From an uncultured Oscillospiraceae bacterium (GTDB taxonomy: Bacteria > Bacillota > Clostridia > UBA1212 > UBA1255), in assembly GCA_902472555.1 (NCBI GenBank), contig CABROF010000001.1, forward strand, positions 32,025 through 96,024: a DNA stretch of 64,000 nt, read 5' to 3'. The position numbers were made by a program, and so were the translations under genes. The notes beneath the pieces were generated by a model. That model was not told the DNA's origin. It did no database searches and saw nothing but the letters and a program-made list of their open reading frames with translations. Below, piece by piece: positions 4,558-35,692 of this stretch. How positions within the stretch are numbered: position 1 is the stretch's first letter; each line of letters starts with the position of its first letter.

Positions 4558-4601
4558 ACTGTCCATTATCCATTTACGCACAGCTCGCGTTCTGGCGGAG
4601 A

Positions 4602-6786: not shown

Positions 6787-6857
6787 AGCAACCTCCGTAT
6801 CCGCGCCCATTCTTCGGACGCCTGTTTATAAAACGCCTCTATTCTATACATACGGCC

Positions 6858-7454: not shown

Positions 7455-7588
7455 CGTTTTCCGGTATTCCTTTCCTCTCAGAGCATAAATACATCAAGCG
7501 CCCAATTTCACGCTTTATGCACGGGTTGTATTATAGCAGTTCATTCTTAATCTATTCTGGTGGAATTTTTAAGGTTTTCCTAAATAAA

Positions 7589-14194: not shown

Positions 14195-14770
14195 TCAGCC
14201 TGTATTTCCTGTAAGCGCCAAAAATCGTTGGTGTACGGTAAATTGATGATCCAGCTCCGGATGAAAGGCAACCGCAATTTGATTGCGGTATTGTACCCCA
14301 ACGATTTTTCCATCCGTTTCTGCCAAAACAGCTACCTCCGGAGCGGCTTGTTCAATATAGGGCGCACGGATAAAGGTCATGGGAATCGGTCCGCTGCCGC
14401 CGAAATCCGATTCTGTGTAAAAGCTGCCGAGCTGTCTCCCATAAGCGTTGCGCTTGACTGTTACAGGCAGCGTTCCAAAGTGAACCGTCTGCTCTCCGCT
14501 GATGGTGCGGGCCAGCAGTATCAGGCCCGCACACGTTCCTAAAACCGGCAGTCCGTTCAGGATCCTGCTGCGCAGCGGTTCAAAAAGTCCCAGGTCCCGC
14601 AAAAGCTTTCCTTGAACCGTGCTTTCGCCGCCCGGCAGGACAAGCCCGTCAAAAGATCTGTTCAGATCTGCCGGTTTCCGGAGTTCGAAGCAAGCAGCAC
14701 CAAGTCTGTGCAGCATATCCTCATGTTCAATAAACGCGCCCTGCAGCGCAAGCACGGCAATGGTTGCCAT
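14195..14770 (-). CDS. pdxT: Pyridoxal 5'-phosphate synthase glutaminase subunit PdxT.
   Basis: MATIAVLALQGAFIEHEDMLHRLGA ... GTCAGLILLA (catalytic Cys). It lies immediately downstream of pdxS. Confidence 0.85.
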   Translation of the reverse strand: MATIAVLALQGAFIEHEDMLHRLGAACFELRKPADLNRSFDGLVLPGGESTVQGKLLRDLGLFEPLRSRILNGLPVLGTCAGLILLARTISGEQTVHFGTLPVTVKRNAYGRQLGSFYTESDFGGSGPIPMTFIRAPYIEQAAPEVAVLAETDGKIVGVQYRNQIAVAFHPELDHQFTVHQRFLALTGNTG

Positions 14771-14775
14771 AAATA

Positions 14776-15640
14776 CTACTGCCCCCTCTCTGCCATCAGG
14801 AGCTGGATTTCCTGTTCATTGATGCCGATCATAGCCTCTCCTAAATCCTCCGACAGCGCCGCAAGCATGCGCGCATCGGTATAGTTTGTTACAGCCTGCA
14901 CGATCGCCCGGGCTCTTTTTGCCGGATTTCCCGATTTGAAAATGCCGGATCCCACAAATACGCCCTCAGCTCCCAGCTGCATCATCGGCAGGCGTTGCAA
15001 TGCCGCCTGCCGCGAAATTCACAACAGGCAGCCTTCCGTTTTCATGTACAAATAAAATAAGATCATACGGTACCTGCGATTCCTTTGCCGCCTGATACAG
15101 CTCATCTTCACGCATAGCAGAAATCCGTGAAATTTCACTGTTCATCTTGCGCATATGACGGACTGCCTGCACAATATCGCCGGTTCCGGGCTCCCCTTTT
15201 GTCCGGATCATAGCAGCACCTTCGCTGATTCTGCGCAGCGCTTCCCCCAGATCTTTCGCACCGCAGACAAACGGAACCTGAAACTGTGTTTTATCAATAT
15301 GGTATCTGTCGTCCGCAGGCGACAGCACCTCGCTTTCATCAATATAGTCGATTTCGATGGCCTCCAGAATCTGTGCCTCCGCAAAATGTCCGATTCTGCA
15401 TTTGGCCATTACCGGAATGGAAACAGCCTCCTGAATTTCCCGAATCAGCCGGGGGTCGCTCATTCGGGCAACGCCGCCCGCAGCCCGGATATCCGCGGGA
15501 ATCCGTTCTAATGCCATGACTGCGCAGGCTCCCGCCGCCTGTGCAATCTGCGCCTGCTCCGGGCTCGTCACATCCATAATCACGCCGCCTTTTAACATCT
15601 GCGCCAATTCCTTATTCAGCATCTCCCTTTTTGAATCCAT
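14776..15640 (-). pseudogene. pdxS: Pyridoxal 5'-phosphate synthase lyase subunit PdxS, split into two reading frames by a frameshift near 14985..15000. This may be an authentic pseudogene or an assembly error.
   Basis: The 224-aa upstream ORF ends ...[19 protein letters not shown]. The next frame continues (L)[39 protein letters not shown]. Canonical PdxS reads ...[28 protein letters not shown]. Confidence 0.7.
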
Positions 15641-18883: not shown

Positions 18884-21463
18884 ATGAAGCACAGAAAAGA
18901 TTTTTTTCATATTTTAATTCGTTGTATGCTTGCCTTTCTTTTTATTTATACAGCCGCCGGCTGTACCGTACAATCCCTGCCGCAGCATACAGCGCCTGCT
19001 GCTTCCGCTTCAGATCGGACGGATTTTCCTGTGCAAACGACTGCTGAAGCCTCGCCTGCCCAAACACCTTCCTCGGAAACGCCCAATCCGGCACACTTTT
19101 TAAAAATCAGTGAACTAATGGCTTCCAACACCTTAGGAATTACAGACCGTCAGGGCGTCAGGCAGGATTGGATTGAACTTACAAATTACGGCAGCGTTCC
19201 CATCCATCTCAAGGGCTTTTCCCTGAGTCTTTCTCCCGGAAGCGTAAAATGGACATTTCCCGACGTATGGATAGCGCCGCAGGCATCCCTGCTGCTATTT
19301 GCTTCCGGCGCAGGCACCTATACCGGCGAGCTGCACATTGCCTTCAAATTGAGCAAGGAGAGCAAAACCGTCCTGCTTGCAGATCCGGAAGGCCTTTTGA
19401 TTGACAGCGTTACATATCCTGATCTAAAAGACGATTATGCCTATGCACGGACCGGGGCTCAGCCCACGGATCCCTTTGCGGTCACAAACATTGTCTCGCC
19501 GGGATATCCAAATACGGTTGCCGGTGTGGAGGCATATTTTGCAGAAGCAGAGGCCGGGGGTAAAATGCTGGTGATCAACGAAGCGGTAAGCTCTAATTTT
19601 CAGCAGCTGGAACAAAACGGAGCATATTATGACTGGATTGAAATTAAAAATGTCACTTCTGCTTCCGTCAATCTAAAAAATTATTATTTATCCGACAGCA
19701 AAAAGGATCCGTTGAAATGGAATATGCCGGATCAAATACTCGCGCCCGGTGAAATCTGTGTTTTTCTCGCCTCCGGGGATGAAAGTCTGACTGGCGGTTC
19801 CTATGTACATACAAATTTTAAGCTGGACGGAATATCAGAATGCCTATATCTATCAGACGCTGCCAAAAATTTGCTTGACGGTGTGCTGCTAACGGACATT
19901 CCCTATGGCGGAAGCTGCGGCAGAATGCCCGGGAAAGCCGGCTTCTTTTACTTTGAAAAAGCAACGCCCGGCGAAGAAAACACTGCCGGGAAACGAGAAA
20001 TCTCCCATACGCCGGTCTCATTGACGCCGGATGGTATTTACGACGAATCCGCCGCACCGATTCTTGTTACGCTTTCCGGAGAAGGCAGGATTTATTATAC
20101 GCTTGACGGAAAGGAACCGACGGATAAGAGCCTGCTCTATACAGGTCCCTTCACGATCTCCGAAACCACAGTGGTCAGAGCGGTTTCCATCGCGCCGGAT
20201 AAAATCAAAAGTGACGTATACACAGCCGGCTTTTTTATAAACGAAGGCCATACGCTTCCGATTCTGAGCGTTGTATTGGATCCGGACGATCTCTGGAGCG
20301 ATGAAACGGGGATTTATGTAAAAGGGCCGGATGCCTCTCCGGAGGCACCCTATTACGGAGCAAATTATTATAAAGACTGGGAGCGAAAGGCCAGTGCCGC
20401 ATTTTATGAAAAAGGCGGAAGCGGATTTACCATTGACTGCGGTCTCAAAATCGCGGGCGGAGGAAGCCGGTATCTCGAAAAGAAATCATTCAGCCTGAAA
20501 TTCAAATCCCGTTACGGCAGCGAATTTCTTGAATATCCCATATTTGAAAATCCAGATGCACCAGCCCGCTTCAAAACGCTCATGATTCGCTGCGGCGAAG
20601 ATTATACCCGTTCTATTTTCCGCGATGAATTTCTCACCGCACTGGCCGCAGACGGCATGCAGAATCTCGAGGTGCAGAATTACAGGTTCTGTGTTCTGTA
20701 TCTGAACGGCGCGTATTGGGGAATCTATGCCATCCGGGAAAAAGTCGACGAAGACTTCGTGGTTTCCCGTCACCCAGAGACGGACCCGGAAACGGTCTCT
20801 CTCATCCGCAGCAGCGCAGATGTGGAGTTCGGCAGCGGAAAAGCTTATGATGCGCTGTGCCAATACGTAAAAAAACATGATATGTCCCTGCCTGAAAGCT
20901 ACCGTTATCTCGCGGATCGTGTCAATGTCGACAGCATGATCGAATGGCTGGTGGCGGAAGTCTACTCCGGTAATAAGGATTTGGCCAACATCCGCTGCTT
21001 TACGGCAGCAGACCCTGCAGGCAAGCAAACGCTGAAATGGTACTGGGTATTTTATGACCTTGACTGGGGATATATTCATCACGTCGCGCCCTTTTATTTT
21101 CTGCAGGGCAGCGCCGAGGACTCCCGCTCCGTTTTATTCCGCGCGCTTCTGAAAAGTGAAGAAGGCCGCGACCGATTCCTTACGCAGCTGGCATATCACC
21201 TGAGAAATACATTTTCAGAGCAGAAGGCGCTGCAGAAAATCGCGCTGCTGGAATCACTGCTGGAGCCTGAGGTTCTGCGCAACTGCCGCCGATGGGATGT
21301 GCCCGTAGAAAATTACAGGCAAAGCGTTGCGGCGCTAAAAGCCTACGCCTCCTCCGGGCGAGAGCAAGAGGTGATTGATGCAGCAGTCCTTTATTTCAAT
21401 CTTTCCGCCGCAGAGCAGCAGCATTATTTCGGAATGATCTCTGATGAACGCCTGCGCAAATAG
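18884..21463 (+). CDS. Secreted CotH-family (atypical kinase-like) protein with two N-terminal lamin-tail domains (LTD).
   Basis: Signal peptide. Two LTD motifs (ISELMASNTLGITDRQGVRQDWIELTNYGSVPIHLKGFSLS and VINEAVSSNFQQLEQNGAYYDWIEIKNVTSASVNLKNYYLSD). The C-terminal region has the CotH-like RFCVLYLNGAYWGIYAIREKVDEDFV ... NKDLANIRCF. Confidence 0.65.
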   Translation: MKHRKDFFHILIRCMLAFLFIYTAAGCTVQSLPQHTAPAASASDRTDFPVQTTAEASPAQTPSSETPNPAHFLKISELMASNTLGITDRQGVRQDWIELTNYGSVPIHLKGFSLSLSPGSVKWTFPDVWIAPQASLLLFASGAGTYTGELHIAFKLSKESKTVLLADPEGLLIDSVTYPDLKDDYAYARTGAQPTDPFAVTNIVSPGYPNTVAGVEAYFAEAEAGGKMLVINEAVSSNFQQLEQNGAYYDWIEIKNVTSASVNLKNYYLSDSKKDPLKWNMPDQILAPGEICVFLASGDESLTGGSYVHTNFKLDGISECLYLSDAAKNLLDGVLLTDIPYGGSCGRMPGKAGFFYFEKATPGEENTAGKREISHTPVSLTPDGIYDESAAPILVTLSGEGRIYYTLDGKEPTDKSLLYTGPFTISETTVVRAVSIAPDKIKSDVYTAGFFINEGHTLPILSVVLDPDDLWSDETGIYVKGPDASPEAPYYGANYYKDWERKASAAFYEKGGSGFTIDCGLKIAGGGSRYLEKKSFSLKFKSRYGSEFLEYPIFENPDAPARFKTLMIRCGEDYTRSIFRDEFLTALAADGMQNLEVQNYRFCVLYLNGAYWGIYAIREKVDEDFVVSRHPETDPETVSLIRSSADVEFGSGKAYDALCQYVKKHDMSLPESYRYLADRVNVDSMIEWLVAEVYSGNKDLANIRCFTAADPAGKQTLKWYWVFYDLDWGYIHHVAPFYFLQGSAEDSRSVLFRALLKSEEGRDRFLTQLAYHLRNTFSEQKALQKIALLESLLEPEVLRNCRRWDVPVENYRQSVAALKAYASSGREQEVIDAAVLYFNLSAAEQQHYFGMISDERLRK

Positions 21464-21605
21464 CTTAGCTTCGGCAGCTGAGCCGCGAAAAAGGCGCCTG
21501 CCTGTTTCGCAGGCCAATACTTCCTTGCGATAAACCGGCGGCTGTCATCCGGTAAATGGGGCTGTAAAAAAACGCGATAAAAGTAAAAATCGCACATGAT
21601 AAATT

Positions 21606-21640
21606 CCGGCCAAACCACGGTTTACCGTGAATTGGCCGGG
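21606..21640. terminator. Perfect hairpin CCGGCCAAACCACGG-TTT-ACCGTGAATTGGCCGG between convergent genes. It is nested inside a longer roughly 20-bp inverted repeat (21557..21577 / 21658..21677).
   Basis: Read directly from the sequence. It lies between the CotH gene (+) and the 21699 gene (-). Confidence 0.4.
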
Positions 21641-21698
21641 AAGCTTTTGGGAAAAGGCGTTTTTTACAGCCCCATCGTCGTATGTCTGGCCAGCCCCT

Positions 21699-22619
21699 TT
21701 ATTCGCGTCTCATTCTGCGTTTCGTTGCAGACACCGCACCTGCCAATACTGCGGCTGCACAGATACAAGCACAAAGGAAATCCGCATCACCGGTCTCTAC
21801 AGGTTCCAATCCGCCCTTTACGATAAACGGCTGTTCTTCCACTACCGTGCCGGCTTTGTTTCTCATCACAACCTTATATGCACCTGCCGGAATATCAATA
21901 TAAGGCTTCACCTCGGCATTGTCCGGAGTAGGACAATAAAAATCAAACAAATCCAGAGCAACGCCTGGCTGAATAACCGTATAATCCTGCGTGGTCTCCG
22001 TAAGCGTAAAGTATGCATAATAAATACCTGCATTCTGACCAGGCACACTGTCTTTTAAGTAAAGCACTACGGAATCTGTGTCTCCGCCGGTTGCCGTCAC
22101 CATAATCGGTTCCCCTTCTTCATAAACTTCTTTGTTCAGCGATAAAGAACGTTCAATGCCGGCAGTAATCGTAAATTCTTTTGTGGCTAAAACAGAACCA
22201 CTTGTGGCTCTGACTACAATTTTATAATTTCCCTCTTTCAGAGCCTTTGTTTCGGCATCAATAAATGGTTTCACATCATTCGGATTCTCCGGAGTCGGAC
22301 AAGCCCACTTTAAAAGATCGCTGGCAACGCCATTGTCCAGCTTTGTATACGATTCCCTTCCTGTTATGGTATTATCAAAACAAGCATAATAAATACCACC
22401 GTTCACGCCGGGCGTCTTATCCTTTTGGTAGACCACCACATAATCTGTATCTTCACCTGTAGCGGTAACCAGAATTGTTTCTCCTACTTCATAAACGGTT
22501 TTATCCGTCGACAAGGAACGTTCCGCTTCTGCCCGCACCTGTATCACAGGCAGAAAAGACAGCAGCAAACAAACCGCCAATAAACCTAAAATACCCTTAC
22601 TCACATATTTCATATACAC
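21699..22619 (-). CDS. Cell-surface protein with two copies of a roughly 130-aa repeat domain, a signal peptide and a C-terminal hydrophobic anchor with a basic tail.
   Basis: The internal repeat is [SLS-DKTVYEVGETILVTATGEDTDYVVVYQKD..PG.NGGIYYA.F] x2. The C-terminus is FLCACICAAAVLAGAVSATKRRMRRE. Confidence 0.5.
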   Translation of the reverse strand: MYMKYVSKGILGLLAVCLLLSFLPVIQVRAEAERSLSTDKTVYEVGETILVTATGEDTDYVVVYQKDKTPGVNGGIYYACFDNTITGRESYTKLDNGVASDLLKWACPTPENPNDVKPFIDAETKALKEGNYKIVVRATSGSVLATKEFTITAGIERSLSLNKEVYEEGEPIMVTATGGDTDSVVLYLKDSVPGQNAGIYYAYFTLTETTQDYTVIQPGVALDLFDFYCPTPDNAEVKPYIDIPAGAYKVVMRNKAGTVVEEQPFIVKGGLEPVETGDADFLCACICAAAVLAGAVSATKRRMRRE

Positions 22620-22633
22620 CCAACCTTTCTTAA

Positions 22634-23560
22634 TTATTTTCTCTTTTTAAGAACAACTATCACAATTACTGCAATTACAGCAGCCGCAACTACGCCTACA
22701 ATCATCCAGACAGCAGTATTGGTACCGTCTTGAGAAGAATTGGCTGGTTTTGTTGTGGGATCAGTCGTATCATCCGGTTCTGCAGTCACAATCTTTGCCG
22801 TTGTCGGAGTCGGGCTCGGCGCTTCCGTTGCATTCGGGTCTTCTGTTGCATTGGGATCCTTTGTCGGAGTCGCCAGCCGCCAGACAACCTCAAATGCCTG
22901 CTCTGCCACCACCGTACCGCTGTTATCCCGTATGACAATCTTGTACGCGCCTTCCGGTATATCTATATACGGAGCTACCTGCGGATTTGAGGGGGTGGCG
23001 CAGAACCAGTCAAATACATCGATCGGTACATGATTTTCAATTAAAGTGTAGTCTGCTCTTGCTCCTATTGACGTATCAAACGCAGCATAATAAATACCGG
23101 CATCCTGACCCGGAATATAATCCTGTGGATAGAGACATATATAGTCCGTCGCTTCCCCGGATGCCGTAACCAGAATCGCCTCTCCCTCTTCATAAACCGT
23201 CTTATCCAAGGATAAAGAACGTCCCGTGCCTGCTTCCGGATCTGTTCCCGCTGCCGTTCCCGGCGTCATATCCTGTACTGCGAAAGCCCCCCCCTTTTCC
23301 ACCGTCTTTATTGATGTGTCATTCGTAAAAACTGCGTAATAAATTCCTGAATTTTGTCCCGGGACATCGTCTTCTCTGTAAAAGCCAACAAAATCCGTAT
23401 CTTCACCTGTGGCGGTAACCAGAATTGTTTCTCCTACTTCATAAACGGTTTTATCTGCTGACAGGGAACGTTCCGCTTCTGCCTGCACTTTTACAGGCAG
23501 AAAAGACAGCATTACACAGACCGCCAGCAAACCAAAAATACATCTGAATCCATTTCTCAT
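22634..23560 (-). CDS. Paralogous cell-surface repeat protein. It has two copies of the same domain, then a Thr/Pro-rich stalk, then a C-terminal transmembrane anchor.
   Basis: The same repeat signature (SLSADKTVYEVGETILVTATGEDTDFV ... SLSLDKTVYEEGEAILVTASGEATDYICLY ... AGIYYAAF). Stalk PTKDPNATEDPNATEAPSPTPTT. Anchor MIVGVVAAAVIAVIVIVVLKKRK. Confidence 0.5.
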   Translation of the reverse strand: MRNGFRCIFGLLAVCVMLSFLPVKVQAEAERSLSADKTVYEVGETILVTATGEDTDFVGFYREDDVPGQNSGIYYAVFTNDTSIKTVEKGGAFAVQDMTPGTAAGTDPEAGTGRSLSLDKTVYEEGEAILVTASGEATDYICLYPQDYIPGQDAGIYYAAFDTSIGARADYTLIENHVPIDVFDWFCATPSNPQVAPYIDIPEGAYKIVIRDNSGTVVAEQAFEVVWRLATPTKDPNATEDPNATEAPSPTPTTAKIVTAEPDDTTDPTTKPANSSQDGTNTAVWMIVGVVAAAVIAVIVIVVLKKRK

Positions 23561-23585
23561 AACTCTCCGCTCCTTTTTATATAAA

Positions 23586-25835
23586 TTATTTTACAATCCA
23601 TACCGGATTGGAAAACGCAAAACCGCCCATATAATCCGAATCACCGAATAACGAATGCTGCGTGTACACTTCTACTCTGTAAAACTCATTTTCCGCCACA
23701 TCAATTTTTTGACTGTATTCAAACAGATGTGCCCCCTTGGATCCTTTTGCATCCTCATAAAGCACCTTTACTTCCCGATTCTTATAAGCGGTATCCACAT
23801 CGCCGCCTATTGTATATCGATATAAGACCACCTTTTTAATTGTCGAATATTGGTCCGCAGCTCTGATTTTCACAGTTGCCGTGCCGTTTTCCGGAAGCAG
23901 CAAAGACTGTCCGTTGCCGGCGCCGCTAATAGAAAAACGCAATTCCGGTCCGTTTGTTCCATAGAAGGTTCCATTCTTCAGCGCTTGAATGATGTTCTCT
24001 TCATTCAATTCATTGATCAGCACCGCGTTCCCTGCCGTACCCACAATCTGATCGGTATGACCGTCGGTATTGCAAATGCCATAGTAATGCTGCTCACCTT
24101 TCAGATTATAACGATCCCACCACTCAAACGCATCATCCGTCCATTCTGAATGCCTACGATAATTATGTCCATCCTCATTGTAGACCTCAATTCCGGTAAA
24201 ACCCGTGTAATAATCCACTTTCGTCGGATCCGTTCCCACTCCGGGCCAAATCCAGCGGCCGTCTCCAGTGTAAAACGGATGCGCAATATAGCACAGCCCG
24301 CCTTCCTCAATAATCGTATCCATAATTTCCTGCCATTCCCCTACTGTGGGCCGGATCGCCGCCATGATTTCCCACATACCGCCAGTATATCCCGCTGGAT
24401 GCATGTAAGTCGTATTATATTCCAGCATGTGGCCATAGTTGGTCGTAATTTCATTTCCCACAATCGGAATAAAGTCCGTAAGGCCTTTTGCCGCAGCCCG
24501 GGCAAACGCTTTATTGCCGGGATTGCAGTTGTGTTCCGTAGTCAGAATCCACGCATGGCCTTTGTGATACACGGAAAGAAAGTTATCTTTTAAAGGGCTG
24601 TGGCCGTCGCTTAGCGTACTGTGCGTATGCGCATCTCCCACATAATAGCCTTTGCCATCGGCAATCAGGCGGAAGGATTCTTGAGATAAAATTTTATTGC
24701 TTTTTGTCAGTAATTGTACCGAACAAAGTCCGCTGCCGCCTTCCTGTATAGTGAAATCATATTTGAAATCAGCCGATCCCTGGGCTTCAACCACAATCGC
24801 CAGCTGATCCGCATGGGCATTATGCGTCATCAAAAGCGGCCGCTCTAACTTTACTTTAAACGTTCTATCAGTATCTGTGTGGTTTTCCAGTGTACCGGTA
24901 ATAGACATGGTGTTTCCTGCCGCTGCCTCTCCTGTCAGAACTACATCTCGCATAATATAGCTTTCCACCTCGGCAGACCCACGGTTTTCAAGCGTTTGTG
25001 GATCCGTTATTACATTTTTAAAGCTCTGATAAGCTTGCTGAACCTCCTGTTCAGTCAAAGCACCGCTGTAAAGCGCTGCCTTCGTATAGATAGATGCGCC
25101 TGCCGCATAATCCGTGATTGTTTTGCCGGTCCCGATATCAGCACCGATTACATAGATAAAAGGAGACTCGCCGAATGTCAGACCCGATACATGCAATGTA
25201 TTCTGCAACTGGCCATTCACATAAAACAGGATCTGATTTTTCTCGGCATCATAAACACCCATCAGATGATACAATTCTCCAATCCGTATTTTTTCCTTTC
25301 CGAAAACCGTTCTGTAATCTGTATCAAAATGTTGGAATTTAAAGAAACCGTTATCAAACCAAAGCCCAAACATCCCGTTCTGCGTGGAAGAAAAAATTCC
25401 GATTTGCCGATTGCCCGGCTCCTCTGTATACTGTACTGCCGCTTCAATACTGTAGCCGCCGGACAGTGTCTTCTGAAATGCTTCCTCTTCGGCATAAGCA
25501 GATAAATCGACGCCCATGGCCTGTTTATCCTCTCCCGTATTCCGGTATCCCGGAATTGTCGCAGTTATGCCCTGATGTGTTACTGAGACAGGCTCCACCA
25601 TACCGCTGCCTTCTGTTCGGAACGAAGCATTGTGCGCCAGATCCGCATAGGTCCCGTCACGATAGAAGCACACATCCGCAATGACATGATTCTGATATAA
25701 TGAAAACCCCTCTTTTACGGCAGAATCCGGAATCGCCGGAGGCCCGCTTTCAGCAGGATCCGCAGTTTCTGGACTGCATGCATATAAACTCAGGAAAACC
25801 ATCAAAAGCAACCCGATGATACCTTTTTGTTTCAT
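23586..25835 (-). CDS. Secreted lipoprotein with a PHP-family metal-dependent phosphoesterase domain and a LamG/concanavalin-like domain.
   Basis: Lipobox LSLYACS. PHP signature GDAHTHSTLSDGHSPLKDNF ... ILTTEHN. The preceding region (GIFSSTQNGMFGLWFDNGFFKFQHF ... LYHLMGVYD) resembles LamG. Confidence 0.55.
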   Translation of the reverse strand: MKQKGIIGLLLMVFLSLYACSPETADPAESGPPAIPDSAVKEGFSLYQNHVIADVCFYRDGTYADLAHNASFRTEGSGMVEPVSVTHQGITATIPGYRNTGEDKQAMGVDLSAYAEEEAFQKTLSGGYSIEAAVQYTEEPGNRQIGIFSSTQNGMFGLWFDNGFFKFQHFDTDYRTVFGKEKIRIGELYHLMGVYDAEKNQILFYVNGQLQNTLHVSGLTFGESPFIYVIGADIGTGKTITDYAAGASIYTKAALYSGALTEQEVQQAYQSFKNVITDPQTLENRGSAEVESYIMRDVVLTGEAAAGNTMSITGTLENHTDTDRTFKVKLERPLLMTHNAHADQLAIVVEAQGSADFKYDFTIQEGGSGLCSVQLLTKSNKILSQESFRLIADGKGYYVGDAHTHSTLSDGHSPLKDNFLSVYHKGHAWILTTEHNCNPGNKAFARAAAKGLTDFIPIVGNEITTNYGHMLEYNTTYMHPAGYTGGMWEIMAAIRPTVGEWQEIMDTIIEEGGLCYIAHPFYTGDGRWIWPGVGTDPTKVDYYTGFTGIEVYNEDGHNYRRHSEWTDDAFEWWDRYNLKGEQHYYGICNTDGHTDQIVGTAGNAVLINELNEENIIQALKNGTFYGTNGPELRFSISGAGNGQSLLLPENGTATVKIRAADQYSTIKKVVLYRYTIGGDVDTAYKNREVKVLYEDAKGSKGAHLFEYSQKIDVAENEFYRVEVYTQHSLFGDSDYMGGFAFSNPVWIVK

Positions 25836-25854
25836 GTCTTTCTCCTCCTCTTAA

Positions 25855-28179
25855 TTAATCTATCAATTCTCCGTAAACTTCCATTTCCGCAATTTCAACA
25901 CAATACCCGGCGGATGCCGTCCCCGAACGAGTCAGCTTTGTTGCGGCGAATTGAACATAACGTGCTTGTATGGGCTCAATTTCTAATGTACGTACATCCT
26001 GACGCTGCGGAGTATTATCATGCTTCATCTGTTTGACGGCTGTCCACTGAACGCCGTCTTGGGAAACCCGGATTTCATAATCATCCGGAAAAACATTTAC
26101 ACCATTCCATACCTTTTGCGGCGTCAGTACAACACGTTCTACTTTATAACTTCCCAACAGATCGATTATGATCCATTCTTCTGCGTTTTCGGTGGAATTT
26201 CGATTCATTCCGCTGGACCAGACTTTAGATGTACCATCGTTAATATAGGTATAATGGCAGTTCCAATCCGGCTGATCCGTACTGGAGGAATAACTTAAAA
26301 CCGGTTTATGCAATGCAATATTTTCGCCATCTGTATAGGCTGGCGGTTCATAAGAAGTAGCAATATGGTCTTCAATAGAACCGTCATCATGATAAACCGC
26401 GATCTCACCGATTTCACAGAAGCAATTCCCCTCCGATAGCAAAAAATCCGTTACCACCAGACGCATATAGCGTGCCTGTATCGCATGAAAACGAAATACC
26501 GGTACTTTGGTACGGTCCAGGATATCATTTTCTTCTCTCACAACCTCCGTCCATTCCCGGCCATCTGCCGAAGTCAGAATCAGAAAGGATTTCGGAAAAT
26601 AAGCCCCGCAGCGAACACCATTGCCCATCGGATACAAGTCCACGCGATTCAGCGTCTCTATATCACCGAAATCCAATGTGATATATTGTGCCCTTCCGTC
26701 CGTGGTTATCAGTTTTGCACCGTTTCCATCTGTTCCTTCTCCGTCATGCACATCACATAAGAAAGCAGTACCGTCCCCTGCCGCGCTGCTGGCAAAGAGA
26801 CGGGCAGAGACAGCTAAATTTCGTGATCTTTCATGACTATCTTCAACTAAATTCCCGTCAATCACCTGAAATACCGCACCGTCGCCGGCTGCCAGCTGCA
26901 GCGTCAGCACCCCGTTTTCCACCGGCGCATCCACCAGCGCTCCGGTACGCTCGTCAACCATCTTCAGCCGAAGCGCTCCTACATCCAGACGGATCTGCTG
27001 TGTTTTTCTAAAATCTTTGTTTACAATCATGAAATACGAATTCTCGTCGCTGCGCGGCTGAATAACAGATAAGATAACATCTGTTTTATCGATTGCTTGT
27101 ATCGGGAAGTCATTCGGAATTTTTTTATAAGCACCGGGAGTTCTTATCATACTGTGGTAAACTGCCACTGCATCGCCGGAAGCCAGATACGTCCCCAGAC
27201 GATGGATTTTTTTGTTGATTTCACACACTGCGAAAAAAAGATCCGTCGGTTCATAATCCCTATCAAAAATAGCATTGCTGTATGTACCTTCCCCGCTGGG
27301 GGGCGTTCCCCATGTAAAAAACTTAAGTTCTTTTACACCGTACGCCAATGCCGCCATCATATTGTAACGCAGATCAGCGGCAGTCGGTCTCCGATAATGA
27401 TCCTGATATCCGACAGACTGTACGTATACCGCTGTGTTTTTTCCGGTAGCCAGCGCGGCGCGGCGCAGATCATCATAATTTCTGAATAATTCAAGCTCAT
27501 TAACGCCGCCGTTTAAATCAAAGCAATAGGTATCCAAAGACAACGTCCCGCCGTAAGGAATCAAGCTTCCAAAATCGGTTAGACGTTTATAATAGGTTCC
27601 CTCCGGATAACATCCTCTCGGCAGGAAGTTGATATTGATATACGAATCCGGACAGACAGAACGCAGTAAATTTTCCACATCGGCATAAACATTCGGATTG
27701 ACCGGCTCATCCACCACATAAAAGCCGGCAAATCCCGGTAAATCCTTATATTCTTCAGCAATCTCCAGCAGCGCTTCATCGGTTTGTTCAAGGCACGTCT
27801 GAATGCGGTAATCTCTGGAATAAATACGCAGACCGTGTTCCGCAGCTTCTGCCATAATCTGCTTGTACTTATCTGCCGTATGGCCTTCCGCGACCCATAC
27901 AGGATCCACATATATATGAGAAACCACATCAATTTCCGCTTCATTCATATAAGCAAATTGTCTTTTCCGTACCTCTTCGTCGTGCAGTGGTACCAGATAT
28001 GCATTAATAATAATATTGTCCCGCGTAATCGGCTGTACATTGTTCATTGGCAGCATATAGTCCTCCTTTTTGTCCTGTTCAGGCTGATTGCTCCGGCGGC
28101 ACCCCGGCAGTATGAAAAGCAGCAGTAATGAGAAAAGTATGATTACAGTCAGCTGCCATCTCCTGAATATTGGATTCAT
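25855..28179 (-). CDS. Secreted glycoside-hydrolase-like TIM-barrel protein with two C-terminal F5/8 type C (discoidin) domains.
   Basis: Signal peptide. The N-terminal half has FAGFYVVDEP-type GH-like motifs. Two discoidin-like blocks (...AQYITLDFGDIETLNRVDLYP... and ...EEWIIIDLLGSYKVERVVLTPQ...). Confidence 0.5.
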   Translation of the reverse strand: MNPIFRRWQLTVIILFSLLLLFILPGCRRSNQPEQDKKEDYMLPMNNVQPITRDNIIINAYLVPLHDEEVRKRQFAYMNEAEIDVVSHIYVDPVWVAEGHTADKYKQIMAEAAEHGLRIYSRDYRIQTCLEQTDEALLEIAEEYKDLPGFAGFYVVDEPVNPNVYADVENLLRSVCPDSYININFLPRGCYPEGTYYKRLTDFGSLIPYGGTLSLDTYCFDLNGGVNELELFRNYDDLRRAALATGKNTAVYVQSVGYQDHYRRPTAADLRYNMMAALAYGVKELKFFTWGTPPSGEGTYSNAIFDRDYEPTDLFFAVCEINKKIHRLGTYLASGDAVAVYHSMIRTPGAYKKIPNDFPIQAIDKTDVILSVIQPRSDENSYFMIVNKDFRKTQQIRLDVGALRLKMVDERTGALVDAPVENGVLTLQLAAGDGAVFQVIDGNLVEDSHERSRNLAVSARLFASSAAGDGTAFLCDVHDGEGTDGNGAKLITTDGRAQYITLDFGDIETLNRVDLYPMGNGVRCGAYFPKSFLILTSADGREWTEVVREENDILDRTKVPVFRFHAIQARYMRLVVTDFLLSEGNCFCEIGEIAVYHDDGSIEDHIATSYEPPAYTDGENIALHKPVLSYSSSTDQPDWNCHYTYINDGTSKVWSSGMNRNSTENAEEWIIIDLLGSYKVERVVLTPQKVWNGVNVFPDDYEIRVSQDGVQWTAVKQMKHDNTPQRQDVRTLEIEPIQARYVQFAATKLTRSGTASAGYCVEIAEMEVYGELID

Positions 28180-28455
28180 TGCAAATAAAACCTCCCTGCT
28201 TTATAAGTTTCACTGATCATACGTTAACACAGCCGAACACTTTTCTGCTATTTCTAAAAAGACCACTTTTGTCATTTTTTCGACTTTTTGGCTGATTACA
28301 GAATCCTTCAGCCTTCCTCTGCATAAAACTATACATTTGAGTATGATACAGGTTACACCGCTGAAAACACGGATTGATTCGGCTGCGGAATACATCTTGA
28401 ATATTTTGTAAATCTGCGTTAAACTCTCTGCATACAGTAGAGTTCAGGAGGGTAG

Positions 28456-28478
28456 CGTGAAAAATAAAATTTTTCACG
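28456..28478. promoter_or_regulatory. Perfect 10-3-10 palindrome CGTGAAAAAT-AAA-ATTTTTCACG, 30 bp upstream of the merR-like gene. Candidate operator.
   Basis: Read directly from the sequence. No T-tract follows, so it is not a typical terminator. Confidence 0.35.
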
Positions 28479-28506
28479 CGGAAATTGCGAAAGGATGGAG
28501 ATGATT

Positions 28507-29352
28507 ATGAAATCTGAATTGCTATCTATCGGCAAGATGGCAAAGCTGAACCGGCTTTCTATCCCAACGCTGAGATTGTATGACGAAAAGGGACTTCTGA
28601 AGCCGCGCTACATTGACCCCTGCAGCGGATACAGATATTATGATATTCATCAAAATGCACGTCTGGATATGATTGCATACATGAAGGAATTAGGTATGAG
28701 CCTGTCTGAAATTGCAGATGTATTTCAAAAAGAAGATCTCACCCGAATCGAGGATATCCTTGCCCAAAAGAATGAGCAGATTCACGAACAGATCCGCCGC
28801 TTGAAAGCCAGACATGATGCAGTAGAACGTGCAATTGTGTCTATTGAACGCTATCGGAAATCGCCGGCAACAGGCACGCTGTCACTGGAATATATTGACC
28901 GGCGCTGCATCTGGGGAATTCCATGTTCCTCTAATTTTTACAGCAGCGATATTTCCGGCTATGAAAAAATGCTGCTGGAACTTCGCCATTCCCTGGAGAA
29001 ACATGCATTTGAGCAGATTCATTCCTATAATATCGGCACATCGATTACCAAGGAAAATTTTATCAATGACCGCTTTATTGCAAACGAAATTTTCATTTTC
29101 ACCAATCGGCATGAGCAGAATGCCCAGGCAACACTGCAAACCATAGACAGCGGCATGTACGCGTGTATCTATCTGGATAATTATGATGATGAGATGGCTT
29201 ATGCACGGATGCTGAAAGATTATTGCGCACAAAATCATTATGATATTTCCGGCGATTATATCTGCGAAGTTATGACGGAATTCAACGTATTTGACAGCGA
29301 TCATCGCAGTATGTTCCTGAGACTGCAGGTTCCGGTAAGCTTTTTTAAATAA
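28507..29352 (+). CDS. MerR-family transcriptional regulator with a C-terminal GyrI-like effector-binding domain.
   Basis: N-terminal HTH LSIGKMAKLNRLSIPTLRLYDEKGLLKPRYIDPCSGYRYY and coiled-coil linker. Start ATG 28501 or 28507. Confidence 0.8.
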   Translation: MKSELLSIGKMAKLNRLSIPTLRLYDEKGLLKPRYIDPCSGYRYYDIHQNARLDMIAYMKELGMSLSEIADVFQKEDLTRIEDILAQKNEQIHEQIRRLKARHDAVERAIVSIERYRKSPATGTLSLEYIDRRCIWGIPCSSNFYSSDISGYEKMLLELRHSLEKHAFEQIHSYNIGTSITKENFINDRFIANEIFIFTNRHEQNAQATLQTIDSGMYACIYLDNYDDEMAYARMLKDYCAQNHYDISGDYICEVMTEFNVFDSDHRSMFLRLQVPVSFFK

Positions 29353-30718: not shown

Positions 30719-32023
30719 TCAATCATTTTGTGATATGCCCTTCGATAAACATTGGTATCGATATCTCAATATACTACTTCCACATAGGATAAACGCAACA
30801 CCAATGATCAAAAGTGAAAATGTATTGTCCGCGGTGATTGGGTTCTTCCCATCCACTTCGATCGACCTAACGTCTGCCTTCCAATCTTCATATAAAGTTT
30901 TCGACATTAATGTAATAACAAATGGCTTGTTATCAAAAAGACCTTCTGTGGACGCTAAAACCTTTGCGGCATAAGTTCCCTGTTCTGAAAAAGACAAAGT
31001 TCCGTCACTATTTTCAATTCTTTCATAGTCGGCACTGCATTCTATTATTTGAAGTGAAGAGAATATAATATCTTTTTGGAAATACGTCTGCAACGCATCT
31101 TGCACGCTATACTCAGCAATCTGGGTATATAATAACGGATAATACATAAAATATTTATTTGGTCTTTCACTACGTTCGCCGGTATGTGATGGACAAAACA
31201 GATCGGCCAAGGAACCGCCGTTAATCCTCCAACCGTTTTCTGTATAGATAAAGGATACAGACAAAATTAACGGAACCAGAGCGCCTTGATACTTTTCAGA
31301 AGCGTTATCTAACCTAAGATAACCAAAAGCTTCGCGGGGGTCCCTTTTCTCCATCCAGCAGCCGGTTTGGTCATTGCTGCCGCCAACCTGCATGCTGTCG
31401 AAATTGGTTGGATAAATAATCGGTTGCCAATTCACAGGGGTGTTCTCTAAAAAATATGCTTTGCCTTCATGATTGGTCAGCATTCCCAGCATGTGACCGG
31501 TTCCGCGCCCGTGTTCAATTGCATATTGATAATAATTATCGGTATAAATAGTTTGGGCAAGTTCCTCCCAATACGCGTAATCCGTCATACCCTCTTTCGC
31601 TGGCAAATATTTTACGATATGCCCATTGCGTTCCAAAAAGACAGGTTCGCCACCTTGATCAATATAGGGGGACGCATCATGATAAACCAATTCAAACAGT
31701 TCGCAGGCTTTGGCGCATAACGCAATAATCTCCCCATCCGTAATGCTGTCTTCTGCGGCTTGAACCTTATTCAGTACGCTCACAAATATGGCGTTATCAA
31801 GGCTGCCATCAAATACAAAACCAATCGCCAGCATGTCTATCGCCGGCTGCGCCGTTATGATGGTTCTGTTGACTCTTTGCGCGACCGCTCCAGAAGACCG
31901 CACGCCCATCCGAATCAGCATACCCCAGAAGAGATAAAACTCATTTCCGATATGCGCAGACGGAATCCGGCTGCCGGTCTTATCGTCTTCTGGGTTAAGC
32001 TTACGCAGCGAGGCTGCTCCCAT
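30719..32023 (-). CDS. Hypothetical protein with a C-terminal transmembrane anchor. The true start is probably far downstream of 32023.
   Basis: Protein-like composition over most of its length, with a C-terminal hydrophobic segment LLIIGVAFILCGSSIL. Its first 90 or so codons overlap an IS481-type transposase fragment encoded on the opposite strand. The gene is therefore either shorter or truncated. Confidence 0.35.
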   Translation of the reverse strand: MGAASLRKLNPEDDKTGSRIPSAHIGNEFYLFWGMLIRMGVRSSGAVAQRVNRTIITAQPAIDMLAIGFVFDGSLDNAIFVSVLNKVQAAEDSITDGEIIALCAKACELFELVYHDASPYIDQGGEPVFLERNGHIVKYLPAKEGMTDYAYWEELAQTIYTDNYYQYAIEHGRGTGHMLGMLTNHEGKAYFLENTPVNWQPIIYPTNFDSMQVGGSNDQTGCWMEKRDPREAFGYLRLDNASEKYQGALVPLILSVSFIYTENGWRINGGSLADLFCPSHTGERSERPNKYFMYYPLLYTQIAEYSVQDALQTYFQKDIIFSSLQIIECSADYERIENSDGTLSFSEQGTYAAKVLASTEGLFDNKPFVITLMSKTLYEDWKADVRSIEVDGKNPITADNTFSLLIIGVAFILCGSSILRYRYQCLSKGISQND

Positions 32024-32711: not shown

Positions 32712-32788
32712 TGGTCGGGATGACAAGATTTGAACTTGCGGCCTCTGCGTCCCGAACGCAGCGCTCTACCAAACTGAGCCACATCCCG
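32712..32788 (-). tRNA. tRNA-Pro (anticodon CGG).
   Basis: The minus-strand sequence CGGGATGTGGCTCAGTTTGGTAGAGCGCTGCGTTCGGGACGCAGAGGCCGCAAGTTCAAATCTTGTCATCCCGACCA folds as a cloverleaf. The acceptor stem is CGGGATG/CATCCCG. The anticodon stem CTGCG/CGCAG carries the loop TTCGGGA. A T-loop TTCAAAT and a 3' CCA are present. Confidence 0.85.
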
Positions 32789-32881: not shown

Positions 32882-33712
32882 TTACAGGAGGGTGCCGGCG
32901 TTTTCAGTCACAGAGACCTCTACAGTCTGGCGCTGTACAGTCTGTCCGGAAAAAAAGCCGCGGTCTACCATACAATCTCCATAGTCCCGGCCATGGCAAA
33001 GCTTGATATAACGGTCGTCCGTACGGCAATTGTTCGTCGGATCCAACCCGATCCAATATTCATCATAAATCTCCACCCAAGCATGTGTCGTGGTCCCGCC
33101 CAGCACAATGCCTGCCGCATATCTGGCATAAATCCCCCGCATCCTGCACAATGCGATCATCAAATGTGCATAGTCCTGACATACGCCTTTTCCCTGCCGG
33201 AACGCCTCCGCCGCAGTGGTTCCCGTATTGGTACTCAAACTCTCGTATCGCATGTTTTGGTATACCATCTTCATGAAATATACAGCCTCCTCCAAAACAG
33301 AAAACACTTCGCTCCGTCCCTCTGTCAGCGATAAATAAAAGCTTCGGATATTTTCCTCATATCGGGTAAAATGGGAGGCATAGCGGTACATCGGATATAC
33401 CAGGTCTGCCTGAAGCTGCTGTTTCTGCAGCGCACTTTCGGCATCCTGGCACGCTACAAACGCCACCCCGGCAACGCAAAAGGTAAAATACGTATGCGGC
33501 TCCAGTATTTTACCAACAAACAGACAATTTCCGAAGCCGTCCGTTACGCGGGAAAGATTGCCGCCGGGATCAATATTGCAATTTACATTATAAATTTTCT
33601 GCGCGGCCGTATTGCCGGGCACGCAGCGGATCGAATAAAAATGGCGGGTAACAGGCGTATCGAACTCCAGCCGCATACCGTACCGGAAATATAATTTACG
33701 CACCCAATACAC
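32882..33712 (-). CDS. Transglutaminase-like protein (Bact_transglu_N plus transglutaminase core cysteine protease-like domain).
   Basis: Catalytic core GKGVCQDYAHLMIALCRMRGIYARYAAGIVLGGTTTHAWVEIY (Cys...His). It is the third gene of the ATP-grasp / Alpha-E / transglutaminase triad. Confidence 0.75.
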   Translation of the reverse strand: MYWVRKLYFRYGMRLEFDTPVTRHFYSIRCVPGNTAAQKIYNVNCNIDPGGNLSRVTDGFGNCLFVGKILEPHTYFTFCVAGVAFVACQDAESALQKQQLQADLVYPMYRYASHFTRYEENIRSFYLSLTEGRSEVFSVLEEAVYFMKMVYQNMRYESLSTNTGTTAAEAFRQGKGVCQDYAHLMIALCRMRGIYARYAAGIVLGGTTTHAWVEIYDEYWIGLDPTNNCRTDDRYIKLCHGRDYGDCMVDRGFFSGQTVQRQTVEVSVTENAGTLL

Positions 33713-33716
33713 CTCT

Positions 33717-34397
33717 CTAAAGAATACAGCGGTTGATAGCCTCCAGAACCGGAAACGGGTCTGCCAGCCAGCTTACGGTATCCATCACATATTCGGAAAT
33801 CAGCGTCAGGGCTTCGGGATCATAAATCCGTTCCCCTTCCATATGCTCCAGAAGACTTCTTAATTTCCGGAATTCATCCTTCACTGTCTCCGTGCGATAT
33901 CCTAAACGGATATATAAATCCAGCCGTTCAATATTTTTTCCGCATTTCATCATGGCTAAGCTCATCCAATCCGCCACATTTTCATCTGCGCTGCCCCAAA
34001 ACGCATATAAGTCATCAATGACAGGCTGGAGCTTCAGAAGCGGCGCCGCATTTTCCCGGTCGTGCCTGAGAGAGTCAATGGCAAGCTGCAGATACGCCAG
34101 CGTCTCGCCTGTCAGCTCGTCCCGCAAAACCACACCGTTGTCAAAAGCATTTACTAAACTGCTGAATACAGAGTTCGGATCCTTTTCATCAAATAAAAAA
34201 CCTGAAATAAATTCCTCCCGCGACGCATACTCCCTGTCGAGCCGCAGTTTTCCGCAGAATACCCGGTAAGCCTCTGCATCCTCATCAATCATAGTATCCA
34301 GATACCAAATCAGGCAGCGGCACGTGGTATGCACGCGTTCACAATACCTGCCCAGCCAGAATAAATGCTCTTTGCGCTCTATTGACATAATACCCAT
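33717..34397 (-). CDS. Alpha-E domain protein.
   Basis: All-alpha protein with the conserved E-R-containing N-terminal segment (HLFWLGRYCERV). Its position between the circularly permuted ATP-grasp and transglutaminase genes matches the Alpha-E family context. Confidence 0.6.
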   Translation of the reverse strand: MGIMSIERKEHLFWLGRYCERVHTTCRCLIWYLDTMIDEDAEAYRVFCGKLRLDREYASREEFISGFLFDEKDPNSVFSSLVNAFDNGVVLRDELTGETLAYLQLAIDSLRHDRENAAPLLKLQPVIDDLYAFWGSADENVADWMSLAMMKCGKNIERLDLYIRLGYRTETVKDEFRKLRSLLEHMEGERIYDPEALTLISEYVMDTVSWLADPFPVLEAINRCIL

Positions 34398-35692
34398 GTA
34401 TCTTTAAACCCTCCCCCCTGCGATGAATTCACAACATAAGAATCTGCTTTTCTTGAAAAACGGGTCAAGCCTCCGGGCCATACCTTGCAGTCCGCGCCAG
34501 TCAGCACAAAAGCACGGAGATCCGCCTTCCGCCATACCTCCTGTCCTTCTTCCATGACAGGCAGTTCCACGAAGTCAATCACTTCCTGCGCAATAAAAGC
34601 TCTCGGATGATCGGAAATTTTACCGCGCAGCTCCGCACGCTGCTCCTCTGTGAGCTTGCTGCCGAATACCACCCCATATCCGCCGGACTCCGCCACATCT
34701 TTTATAACCAGCTGCTCTAAATGCTCTAAGATATATGCGCGGTCCTCCTCATAAAAGGCCAGATAGGTCGGCGCATTGCACAAAATCGGCGTTTCATTTA
34801 AATAATAGGAGATCATTTTCGGTACGAAGTAGTAAATCCCTTTGTCGTCCGCCACACCGTTGCCCGGCGTGTTGATCAATGCCACATTTCCGGCGCGGTA
34901 GGCATCCAGAATATGCGGCACTCCGATCAGAGATTCCGGATAAAATGCCATGGGATCCAGAAATTCATCTGATATCCGCCGGTATAGGGCTCCCACCTGC
35001 TCCTTGCTGCCGTCATACTTTTTATAATAGAGCCGGCAGTCTTCCACAATCAAATCCTCCGGCAGAACCAAAACAGCGCCCGCCTGTTCCGCCAAATATA
35101 AATGTTCAAAAAATGCTGCATTATAGCGGCCGGGCGTCAGGATACAGTTGATTCCGCCGGTGTTGACCGCTTCCATCACCTCACGCAGCATTTCCCCGTA
35201 ACATCGATTTTCCGTAACATTTACATCCTGAAATGCCTCCGGACAAGCCTTTCTGCAAAGCTCTCTGGCAATCAGCGGATAGGAAGCGCCGGATGGAATC
35301 CGCAGGTTATCCTCCAGTACGTACCAGATCCCGTCCTTCCCCTGTACCAGATCAATCCCTGAAATGTGCGCATAAATGCCGCCGGGCGGAAGCACTCCTT
35401 CACAGCATGGCAGATATCCCGGAGAGGCATATACAAACTCTTCCGGCACCACACCGTCCCGCAGAATCATTTTCCCTCCGTAAATATCCGCTAAAAATAG
35501 ATTGAGCGCACGGACCCGCTGAATTAAGCCGCGCTGCAGCAGTTCAAACTCATCTGCACGGATTATGCGCGGGAGCACGTCAAATGGAAACAGCTCCTCG
35601 TGAAATTCATTATTTTTATAGATTCCAAATCGAACGCCGTACCGGGCCAAAAGCTGATTGATTTCGTCCGCATGACGGACCAGTTGGTTCAT
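34379..35692 (-). CDS. Circularly permuted ATP-grasp type 2 family protein (predicted amidoligase).
   Basis: About 437 aa. The sequence features match the CP_ATPgrasp family that always precedes Alpha-E. It overlaps the next gene by 19 nt, which suggests translational coupling. Confidence 0.7.
   Translation of the reverse strand: MNQLVRHADEINQLLARYGVRFGIYKNNEFHEELFPFDVLPRIIRADEFELLQRGLIQRVRALNLFLADIYGGKMILRDGVVPEEFVYASPGYLPCCEGVLPPGGIYAHISGIDLVQGKDGIWYVLEDNLRIPSGASYPLIARELCRKACPEAFQDVNVTENRCYGEMLREVMEAVNTGGINCILTPGRYNAAFFEHLYLAEQAGAVLVLPEDLIVEDCRLYYKKYDGSKEQVGALYRRISDEFLDPMAFYPESLIGVPHILDAYRAGNVALINTPGNGVADDKGIYYFVPKMISYYLNETPILCNAPTYLAFYEEDRAYILEHLEQLVIKDVAESGGYGVVFGSKLTEEQRAELRGKISDHPRAFIAQEVIDFVELPVMEEGQEVWRKADLRAFVLTGADCKVWPGGLTRFSRKADSYVVNSSQGGGFKDTWVLCQ

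Follow-up and report, generated by a model that had tools for sequence, protein, structure and literature searches.

A putative surface glycoconjugate-degrading operon beside an LTD-CotH lipoprotein gene in an uncultured Oscillospiraceae bacterium

Introduction

The CotH protein of the Bacillus spore coat is a Ser/Thr kinase, for which residues D228 and D251 are required in B. subtilis, and is the only CotH protein with a demonstrated function (PMC7821199). Among extracellular clostridial proteins, the cellulosomal Cthe_0239 of Clostridium thermocellum has been listed as 'LTD, LTD, Fn3, CotH', and CseP/Cthe_0044 is a second cellulosomal CotH protein of the same species (PMC6083626); a literature search combining 'CotH' and 'lamin tail' returned cellulosome inventories only. 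Here, we analyze a locus of an uncultured Oscillospiraceae bacterium, in which a gene encoding a lamin-tail and CotH protein adjoins four further genes for exported proteins (positions 18884-28179). The locus lies in a 64,000-nucleotide stretch of contig CABROF010000001.1 (assembly GCA_902472555.1, positions 32,025 to 96,024, forward strand), referred to as the window, whose coordinates are used throughout. An initial annotation, made from the sequence alone, had regarded the five genes as a single surface system.

Besides the CotH protein, the products of this locus recall several described enzyme groups. Glycoside hydrolase family 42 (GH42) enzymes are intracellular and trimeric, most PHP enzymes are phosphoesterases, and the ligands of CBM32 domains are typically galactose-type groups of foreign glycans. 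From the comparison of related loci, we consider it somewhat more probable than its contrary that the four genes on the minus strand, denoted G5 to G2, form a surface glycoconjugate-degrading operon with an optional PHP hydrolase and a beta-sandwich module acting in trans, and that the LTD-CotH lipoprotein encoded beside them (G1) is unrelated to it.

Results

Locus layout

The locus and its boundaries comprise the following features.

18884-21463, plus strand: G1, 859 amino acids (aa), secreted lipoprotein of LTD-LTD-CHB_HEX_C/Fn3_assoc-CotH architecture
21496-21514, minus strand: terminator-like hairpin and T-run 3' of G2, from a consensus scan and the sequence itself
21699-22619, minus strand: G2, 306 aa, signal peptide, two copies of a beta-sandwich module, C-terminal membrane anchor
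22634-23560, minus strand: G3, 308 aa, signal peptide, one degenerate and one full module copy, stalk, anchor
23586-25835, minus strand: G4, 749 aa, lipoprotein with LamG and PHP-type CehA/McbA metallohydrolase domains
25855-28179, minus strand: G5, 774 aa, lipoprotein with GH42-like barrel and two discoidin/CBM32 domains
28180-28494, no strand assigned: promoter region common to G5 and the divergent MerR-family gene, about 316 bp
28495-29352, plus strand: MerR-family regulator gene, divergent from G5

The five consecutive open reading frames (ORFs) were found as initially annotated, and export signals could be read directly from the sequence in all five products; however, the genes are not co-directional. 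Since G1 lies on the opposite strand and is convergent on G2 (it is divergent from a DeoC-like gene upstream), the supposed five-gene block resolves into a monocistronic gene and a probable four-gene operon. The genes G5-G4-G3-G2 are separated, in that order, by gaps of 19, 25, and 14 bp, a spacing that makes their co-transcription probable, and a GGGAGG ribosome-binding site precedes the G5 start. Gene callers place the G2 start on identical contigs at an ATG six bases in, at position 22613, which gives a protein of 304 aa. Contigs of ENA, NCBI, and Logan (meta)genome assemblies, up to 174 kb in length, encode identical proteins in the same gene order, and one sample label among them (NIEL14-1) probably denotes a human-gut data set. 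The MerR-family regulator adjoining the operon was kept in the same species only, and relatives have AraC-type regulators in its place.

The spacer between the convergent stop codons of G1 and G2 (21464-21698, 235 bp) is highly structured. Nested inverted repeats, GGGGCTGTAAAAAAACGC (21559-21576) and GCGTTTTTTACAGCCCC (21659-21675), surround a CCGGCCAA...TTGGCCGG hairpin, and the minus-strand RNA has a folding dG of -93.8 kcal/mol (z = -5.0 versus shuffles). The hairpin at 21496-21514 probably marks the end of the minus-strand operon, and a search of Rfam matched no family in the spacer or the operon region.

Co-conservation across relatives

Related loci were gathered through the repeat protein, G4, and G5, as well as by a one-genome-per-species scan with the G5 alignment, and all were searched with each window domain. 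Loci more than 90% identical were merged, leaving 17 lineages whose G5 catalytic domains share 49% identity or more with that of the window, and for these flanks of up to 10 kb (less at contig ends) were inspected. The relatives are metagenome-assembled genomes (MAGs) of rumen, colon, and fecal Clostridia.

The repeat module, either fused or as a separate gene, was found near G5 in 12/17 lineages, and the PHP enzyme in 5/17 (plus one more locus cut by a contig end). The two genes G5 and G4 lie side by side in the window species as well as in loci L007, L013-15/L028, L016-18/L024, and L032-34. In turn, a CotH gene was detected near G5 in the window species and in locus L022 alone, the inspected flanks of the other 15 lineages yielding none. 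Co-conservation had been set beforehand as the refuting test of the proposal that the five genes constitute one co-conserved surface system; with the CotH gene in two lineages, the PHP enzyme in five or six, and the module in twelve, the five-gene unit is not retained, whereas a narrower unit of G5 and the module, with or without G4, does recur.

Among the remaining window genes between 10 and 42 kb, none recurred in related loci, except for an unrelated match to a GntR/aminotransferase-type regulator in three Niabella loci. Proteins of 546 aa (L008), 481 aa (L012), 470 aa (L040), and 254 aa (L013) were considered as components accompanying the module and rejected, being homologous neither to each other nor to window genes. 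A 416-aa cytoplasmic protein of L016 recurs only in L022.

Glycan-degrading neighborhoods of G5 homologues

The substrate class that we propose for the operon is suggested by the neighborhoods in which G5 homologues occur. In L035, an MFS transporter and a GH20 gene precede the G5 homologue, with a fucosidase-like gene and a GH43 gene further out, while in L027 the G5 homologue stands between an AraC regulator with a collagen-repeat/CBM32 protein on one side and two GH43 genes with a GH123-like gene on the other. L012 (3892-10009) has an AraC regulator followed by two G5 homologues, between which lie a DUF4838 gene and a LamG-fused NPP-type phosphodiesterase; DUF4838 is a Pfam domain covering GH163 and GH185 (PMC10570127). 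More distant homologues stand beside a GH78-type rhamnosidase (L011, 34% identity) or, in Niabella (L040, 29% identity), between a stretch of SusC, SusD, and surface-glycan-binding DUFs and a GH78 gene. Moreover, an Exo_endo_phos protein is encoded near the G5 homologue of L010 (3176-5476), and Zn-dependent phospholipase-C-type genes occur in the neighborhoods of L013 and L016 (985-5895). These genes hint at a possible enrichment of phosphodiesterases of several folds near G5 homologues, which we take as a lead. Action on a glycoconjugate, possibly a phosphate-bearing one, as the initial annotation had supposed, would be compatible with these neighborhoods.

The same contexts bear on a different role, in which the operon would remodel the cell's own envelope, for example through turnover of a wall teichoic-acid-like or phosphodiester-linked glycopolymer, with G2 and G3 as wall-spanning anchors. 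We regard this role as unlikely, since the association of G5 homologues with AraC regulators, MFS transporters, GH20, GH43, and GH123 genes and, more distantly, SusC/D constitutes a catabolic signature, the distribution among close relatives is patchy, and CBM32 domains generally recognize ligands on foreign glycans. Furthermore, pdxST and other unrelated genes stand between the glycosyltransferase genes and the operon in the window. We also considered the window as a canonical Gram-positive polysaccharide utilization locus and rejected this, as no transporter is adjacent.

About 8 kb from the operon, the window contains a trio of circularly permuted ATP-grasp, Alpha-E, and transglutaminase-like genes beside a GH123-family gene (32882-35692, minus strand; 35792-37420, plus strand); L027 likewise has its GH123-like gene near the G5 homologue.

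G5, a GH42-like barrel with two discoidin domains

The domains of G5 are as follows.

26845-28056, minus strand: GH42-like (beta/alpha)8 barrel and beta-sandwich
about 26386-26766 and 25915-26289, minus strand: discoidin/CBM32 domains

The initial description of G5 as a glycoside-hydrolase-like TIM barrel with two discoidin domains was borne out by Pfam, where F5_F8_type_C matched two stretches (112.9 bits versus a cut-off of 28.2, E 1e-32) and GH42 matched in part (30.8 bits, E 2.6e-07, profile positions 221-375 of 376). The predicted fold is a (beta/alpha)8 barrel of the GH42 type. Sequence searches of the PDB retrieved the CBM32 domains at E<=0.01 and marginal GH35 (E about 0.08) and GH42 (E about 0.1) chains, with no significant match for the barrel. 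The lipobox of G5 (LPG|C27) is atypical, and homologues carry clear ones (LAGC, FAGC, LTGC).

In 38 sequences, the residues D157, E158, P159, N184, S214, D216, Y218, and P265 are invariant, and D157-E158-P159, N184, D216, and Y218 remain so down to 25% identity. On the predicted model, the D-E-P motif lies at strand 4 and a D-x-Y motif at strand 6. In contrast, strand 7 ends at position 254 with Q (33 sequences), L (four), or C (one), never with a carboxylate, and E284 at strand 8 is not conserved. Assignment to GH42 was thus considered and rejected, because the strand-7 Glu nucleophile of that family is absent and the strand-4 motif is D-E-P rather than N-E, the Asn preceding the acid/base Glu being replaced by Asp. 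Sequence identity to GH42 and to the structural neighbors GH164, GH35, and GH140, in or near clan GH-A, is 10-17%, and G5 also differs from the intracellular GH42 enzymes in being a CBM32-bearing lipoprotein.

A parallel in catalytic residues is offered by the GH123 and GH20 N-acetylhexosaminidases, which share with G5 an invariant pair of neighboring Asp and Glu residues where a barrel strand ends and a downstream Tyr and Trp, with no separate nucleophile. A DE motif with nearby Tyr and Trp supports substrate-assisted catalysis in GH123-like barrels (PMC11087588). In this context, G5 may represent a new glycosidase family, and the conserved residues would fit either substrate-assisted catalysis through the D157-E158 pair, as in GH20/GH123, or a mechanism with D216 as nucleophile and E158 as acid/base.

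The missing clan GH-A nucleophile, together with the variable residues at 254 and 284, could also be taken to mean that G5 is a non-catalytic or non-glycosidase TIM barrel, such as a binding protein, an esterase, or a lyase. We give this little credence, given that the strict invariance of D157-E158-P159, N184, D216, and Y218 implies a conserved active site, that the Asp-Glu pair with its Tyr and Trp has the precedent cited above, and that homologues occur in glycan-degrading genomic contexts. Under the glycosidase reading, G5 would act as a lipoprotein enzyme steered to its substrate by the two CBM32 lectin domains.

G4, a LamG and PHP-type metallohydrolase

The two recognizable domains of G4 flank a beta-rich middle region.

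25038-25469, minus strand: LamG domain
23595-24650, minus strand: PHP-type CehA/McbA metallohydrolase domain

The LamG assignment corresponds to a match to Laminin_G_3 (PF13385, 51.7 bits versus a cut-off of 27.6, E 1e-13), and a lipobox, LYA|C20, was read from the sequence. As for the PHP domain, with which the initial annotation had completed this lipoprotein, the Pfam PHP model (PF02811) gave no match at E<=0.01, but residues 396-747 correspond to the CehA/McbA family NF038032 (115 bits versus a cut-off of 80, E 4.5e-33, profile positions 1-314 of 315) and the metal motifs are intact. Indeed, the ligand pattern H-x-H...H...E...H...H...D-x-H is complete, and the residues H403, H405, H435, E462, H469, H519, D591, and H593 are invariant in ten homologues. 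Because this trinuclear PHP site is intact, G4 is very likely a metal-dependent hydrolase. A PDB sequence search with G4 gave nothing usable, and a profile of G4 homologues matched only the 37-residue PHP motif of PolX, with which PHP motif I of G4 aligns. The bond cleaved may be a phosphoester, as in most PHP enzymes, and G4 would most likely clear the way for the glycosidase by taking off a blocking substituent, either a phosphoester or another ester. A literature search for CehA/McbA and PHP returned only a review of carbamate-pesticide degradation.

G2, G3, and the beta-sandwich module

G2 and G3 are composed of the following parts.

22161-22529 and 21816-22154, minus strand: two full module copies of G2
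21702-21785, minus strand: C-terminal membrane anchor of G2, a hydrophobic segment with a K/R tail
23222-23479, minus strand: short degenerate module copy of G3
22883-23221, minus strand: full module copy of G3
22712-22882, minus strand: Pro/Thr/Asp-rich stalk of G3
22637-22711, minus strand: membrane anchor of G3, ending KKRK

The two proteins are paralogous, with about 50% identity overall, and carry C-terminal anchors, in agreement with the initial description of tandem repeat proteins; nevertheless, the repeat unit measures about 113-123 aa instead of the roughly 130 aa proposed, and one of the copies in G3 is degenerate. Their first approximately 30 mature residues are nearly identical, and a 49-nt stretch of the signal-peptide-coding 5' ends (22546-22594 and 23493-23541) is 86% identical, a likeness that points to recent duplication or to gene conversion in these 5' portions. 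The C-terminus of G2 (21702-21800) reads 'LEPVETGDAD', followed by a hydrophobic segment and KRRMRRE, a layout resembling a sortase signal with PVETG instead of LPXTG. Sortase anchoring of G2 and G3 was rejected, since neither contains LPXTG, and the anchor of G3 is a plain membrane anchor.

No Pfam or NCBIfam family matched G2 or G3 above threshold. The module is predicted to adopt a beta-sandwich resembling purple-acid-phosphatase N-terminal, macroglobulin (MG), and SKICH domains, although no Pfam model of these reaches threshold on either protein. A word-indexed search with the repeat found only five homologous clusters, while a profile search of the module retrieved 1,247 protein clusters. 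Hence, the description of the repeat as novel is correct in that the module is absent from Pfam, yet by these profile matches it is part of a large uncurated family and not unique to this locus. Compared with shorter relatives (P0005), the window module is extended by an inserted segment of about 20-40 residues, in which Cys, Pro, and Trp are conserved. The partners of the module comprise DUF5722 TIM barrels (6/18 proteins scanned), G5-like enzymes, calcineurin-like phosphoesterases, and CWB2 wall-binding proteins; a literature search found DUF5722 mentioned in no paper.

Across relatives, the module is encoded in two ways. Two copies end G4 homologues of about 1,050 aa (e.g., P0033, aa 812-1052), and one copy ends the G5 homologues P0006, P0023, and the L016-L026/L035 group, the last finishing in '...YKVVIRD..G.V..EVFF.VE'. 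In the window and in L007, L008, and L009, it stands as a separate anchored protein beside G4 or G5 homologues. No other observation argues as strongly for a joint function of G2 and G3 with G4 and G5 as this alternation between fusion and separate gene. Most likely, G3 and G2 would supply in trans, on membrane-anchored stalks, a substrate-binding or spacing function beside the enzymes, a role proposed for the module from its genomic arrangement.

Alternatively, G2 and G3 could be primarily adhesins or surface-layer-like structural proteins, with the enzymes as merely co-transcribed neighbors, as might be read from the Ig-like beta-sandwich fold, the Pro/Thr-rich stalks, and the membrane anchors. 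A likeness of G3 to the tail of a haloarchaeal S-layer glycoprotein points the same way, weakly, its 21 bits falling far below the 400-bit cut-off. We deem this account very improbable, for the same module is fused directly to enzymes in most lineages, and all close relatives examined carry it next to a G4 or G5 homologue.

G1, an LTD-LTD-CotH lipoprotein

The main domains of G1 are the following.

19100-19420, plus strand: first lamin-tail domain (aa 73-179, PF00932)
roughly 19559-19918, plus strand: second lamin-tail domain, with limits read from the sequence and not from tool output
20447-21352, plus strand: CotH domain, atypical kinase fold (aa 522-823, PF08757)

The reading of G1 as a CotH protein with two lamin-tail domains was confirmed by Pfam matches to CotH (PF08757, 118.6 bits versus a cut-off of 23.8, E 5e-34, profile positions 2-316 of 322) and to two LTD stretches (PF00932, 90.9 bits versus 34.3, E 9e-26), with CHB_HEX_C_1/Fn3_assoc between them and CotH (aa 383-447, E 1e-14). 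A lipobox, TAAG|C27, was read from the sequence, and the motifs GNKD...N and YDLDWGY, likewise read from the sequence, might correspond to the CotH catalytic aspartates. PDB sequence searches with G1 and with the CotH domain alone gave no usable match.

When metagenomes were scanned with G1, a single relative emerged (30% identity), which has no G4, G5, or repeat genes within 8 kb. In addition, the rumen Clostridia MAG locus L022 encodes, two genes upstream of its G5 homologue (4224-8270), a 1,348-aa protein combining LTD, CHB_HEX_C/Fn3_assoc, CotH, and RCC1 repeats. Since this CotH protein, not an orthologue of G1, is only 23-27% identical to it, compared with 67% identity between the G5 proteins, the adjacency in L022 is not inherited synteny and arose independently.

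That all five genes form one system, in which phosphate on a lectin-bound host or matrix glycoconjugate is written by the CotH kinase and erased by the PHP phosphoesterase, is the least credible explanation of the locus and a highly improbable one, for although all five products look exported and L022 also pairs a CotH gene with a G5 homologue, G1 is convergent on the opposite strand across the 235-bp structured spacer with its terminator-like hairpin, CotH genes are missing from the inspected flanks of 15/17 lineages, and the only other G1 relative found lacks the remaining genes nearby. More plausibly, G1 would be transcribed independently and stand outside the surface apparatus of the operon.

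Other features of the window

The pdxS (SOR_SNZ) frame at about 14760-15640 (minus strand) breaks near 14966, with its canonical continuation in another frame. In the same-species contig L001, pdxS is intact (291 aa), and the 22,250-nt alignment of the window with L001 has a single gap opening; the break would be either a frameshift (pseudogene) or an assembly error. A 434-aa ORF at 30719-32023 (minus strand) has no Pfam match and was met in same-species contigs only. Finally, within the 64-kb window, Rfam at its gathering threshold matched only a tRNA gene, at 32715-32788 (minus strand).

Discussion

Our favored reading, a surface glycoconjugate-degrading operon from G5 to G2 beside an unrelated LTD-CotH gene, draws on the gene orientation and spacing, the distribution of the module, and the neighborhoods of G5 homologues. 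Several observations nonetheless weigh against it. The window operon has no adjacent sugar transporter, and just about one lineage in three pairs G5 with G4, so that cooperation between the two enzymes would be optional. The catalytic interpretation of G5 relies on a predicted model, in which residues were placed by secondary structure rather than by superposition. The named members of the CehA/McbA family hydrolyze a carbamate ester (carbaryl), not a phosphoester. Likewise, the CotH gene of L022 leaves a small possibility of a loose link between CotH proteins and the operon.

A more ambitious joint reading may be put forward tentatively, and we think it rather doubtful in its entirety. According to it, G5 would found a new glycoside hydrolase family on a GH42-like barrel without the clan GH-A nucleophile, with either the substrate-assisted D157-E158 pair or D216 in its stead, and would dismantle, together with interchangeable phosphodiesterases, a glycoconjugate decorated with phosphodiesters or esters, the site of action being the cell surface of Clostridia from gut and rumen. 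The phosphodiesterase would be the PHP enzyme in the window, the NPP-LamG protein in L012, and EEP or phospholipase-C-type enzymes encoded nearby in L010, L013, and L016, whereas the module would be a new carbohydrate-binding module, either fused or provided in trans.

If the operon acts as proposed, the locus would provide three targets for characterization from Clostridia of gut and rumen, namely an enzyme family on a GH42-like barrel whose catalytic residues are unusual, a surface PHP-type hydrolase partnering it, and a widespread accessory beta-sandwich module, outside Pfam and with over 1,200 clusters, in secreted TIM-barrel (DUF5722, GH42-like) and phosphoesterase proteins. Definition of the substrate would extend the list of gut-anaerobe enzymes for complex or host-type glycans. 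On the other hand, the idea of an extracellular kinase-phosphatase pair is unsupported, the CotH gene being a neighbor and not a partner.

Comparison with described systems

G1 and Cthe_0239 have the same domain order, LTD-LTD-Fn3-like-CotH, and both are extracellular; they differ in attachment, G1 being held by a lipoprotein signal and Cthe_0239 by a dockerin. Judged by its predicted domains, G1 is a lipoprotein form of an extracellular protein type previously described in Clostridia. G4 shares with the CehA/McbA family the end-to-end profile match and the invariant metal ligands, and departs from it as a surface lipoprotein with a LamG domain and a beta-rich middle region, encoded beside a glycosidase-like gene. 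In brief, we conclude with moderate confidence that this locus is a variation on a familiar surface glycan-degrading theme, whose possibly new parts are the G5 family and the uncurated module.

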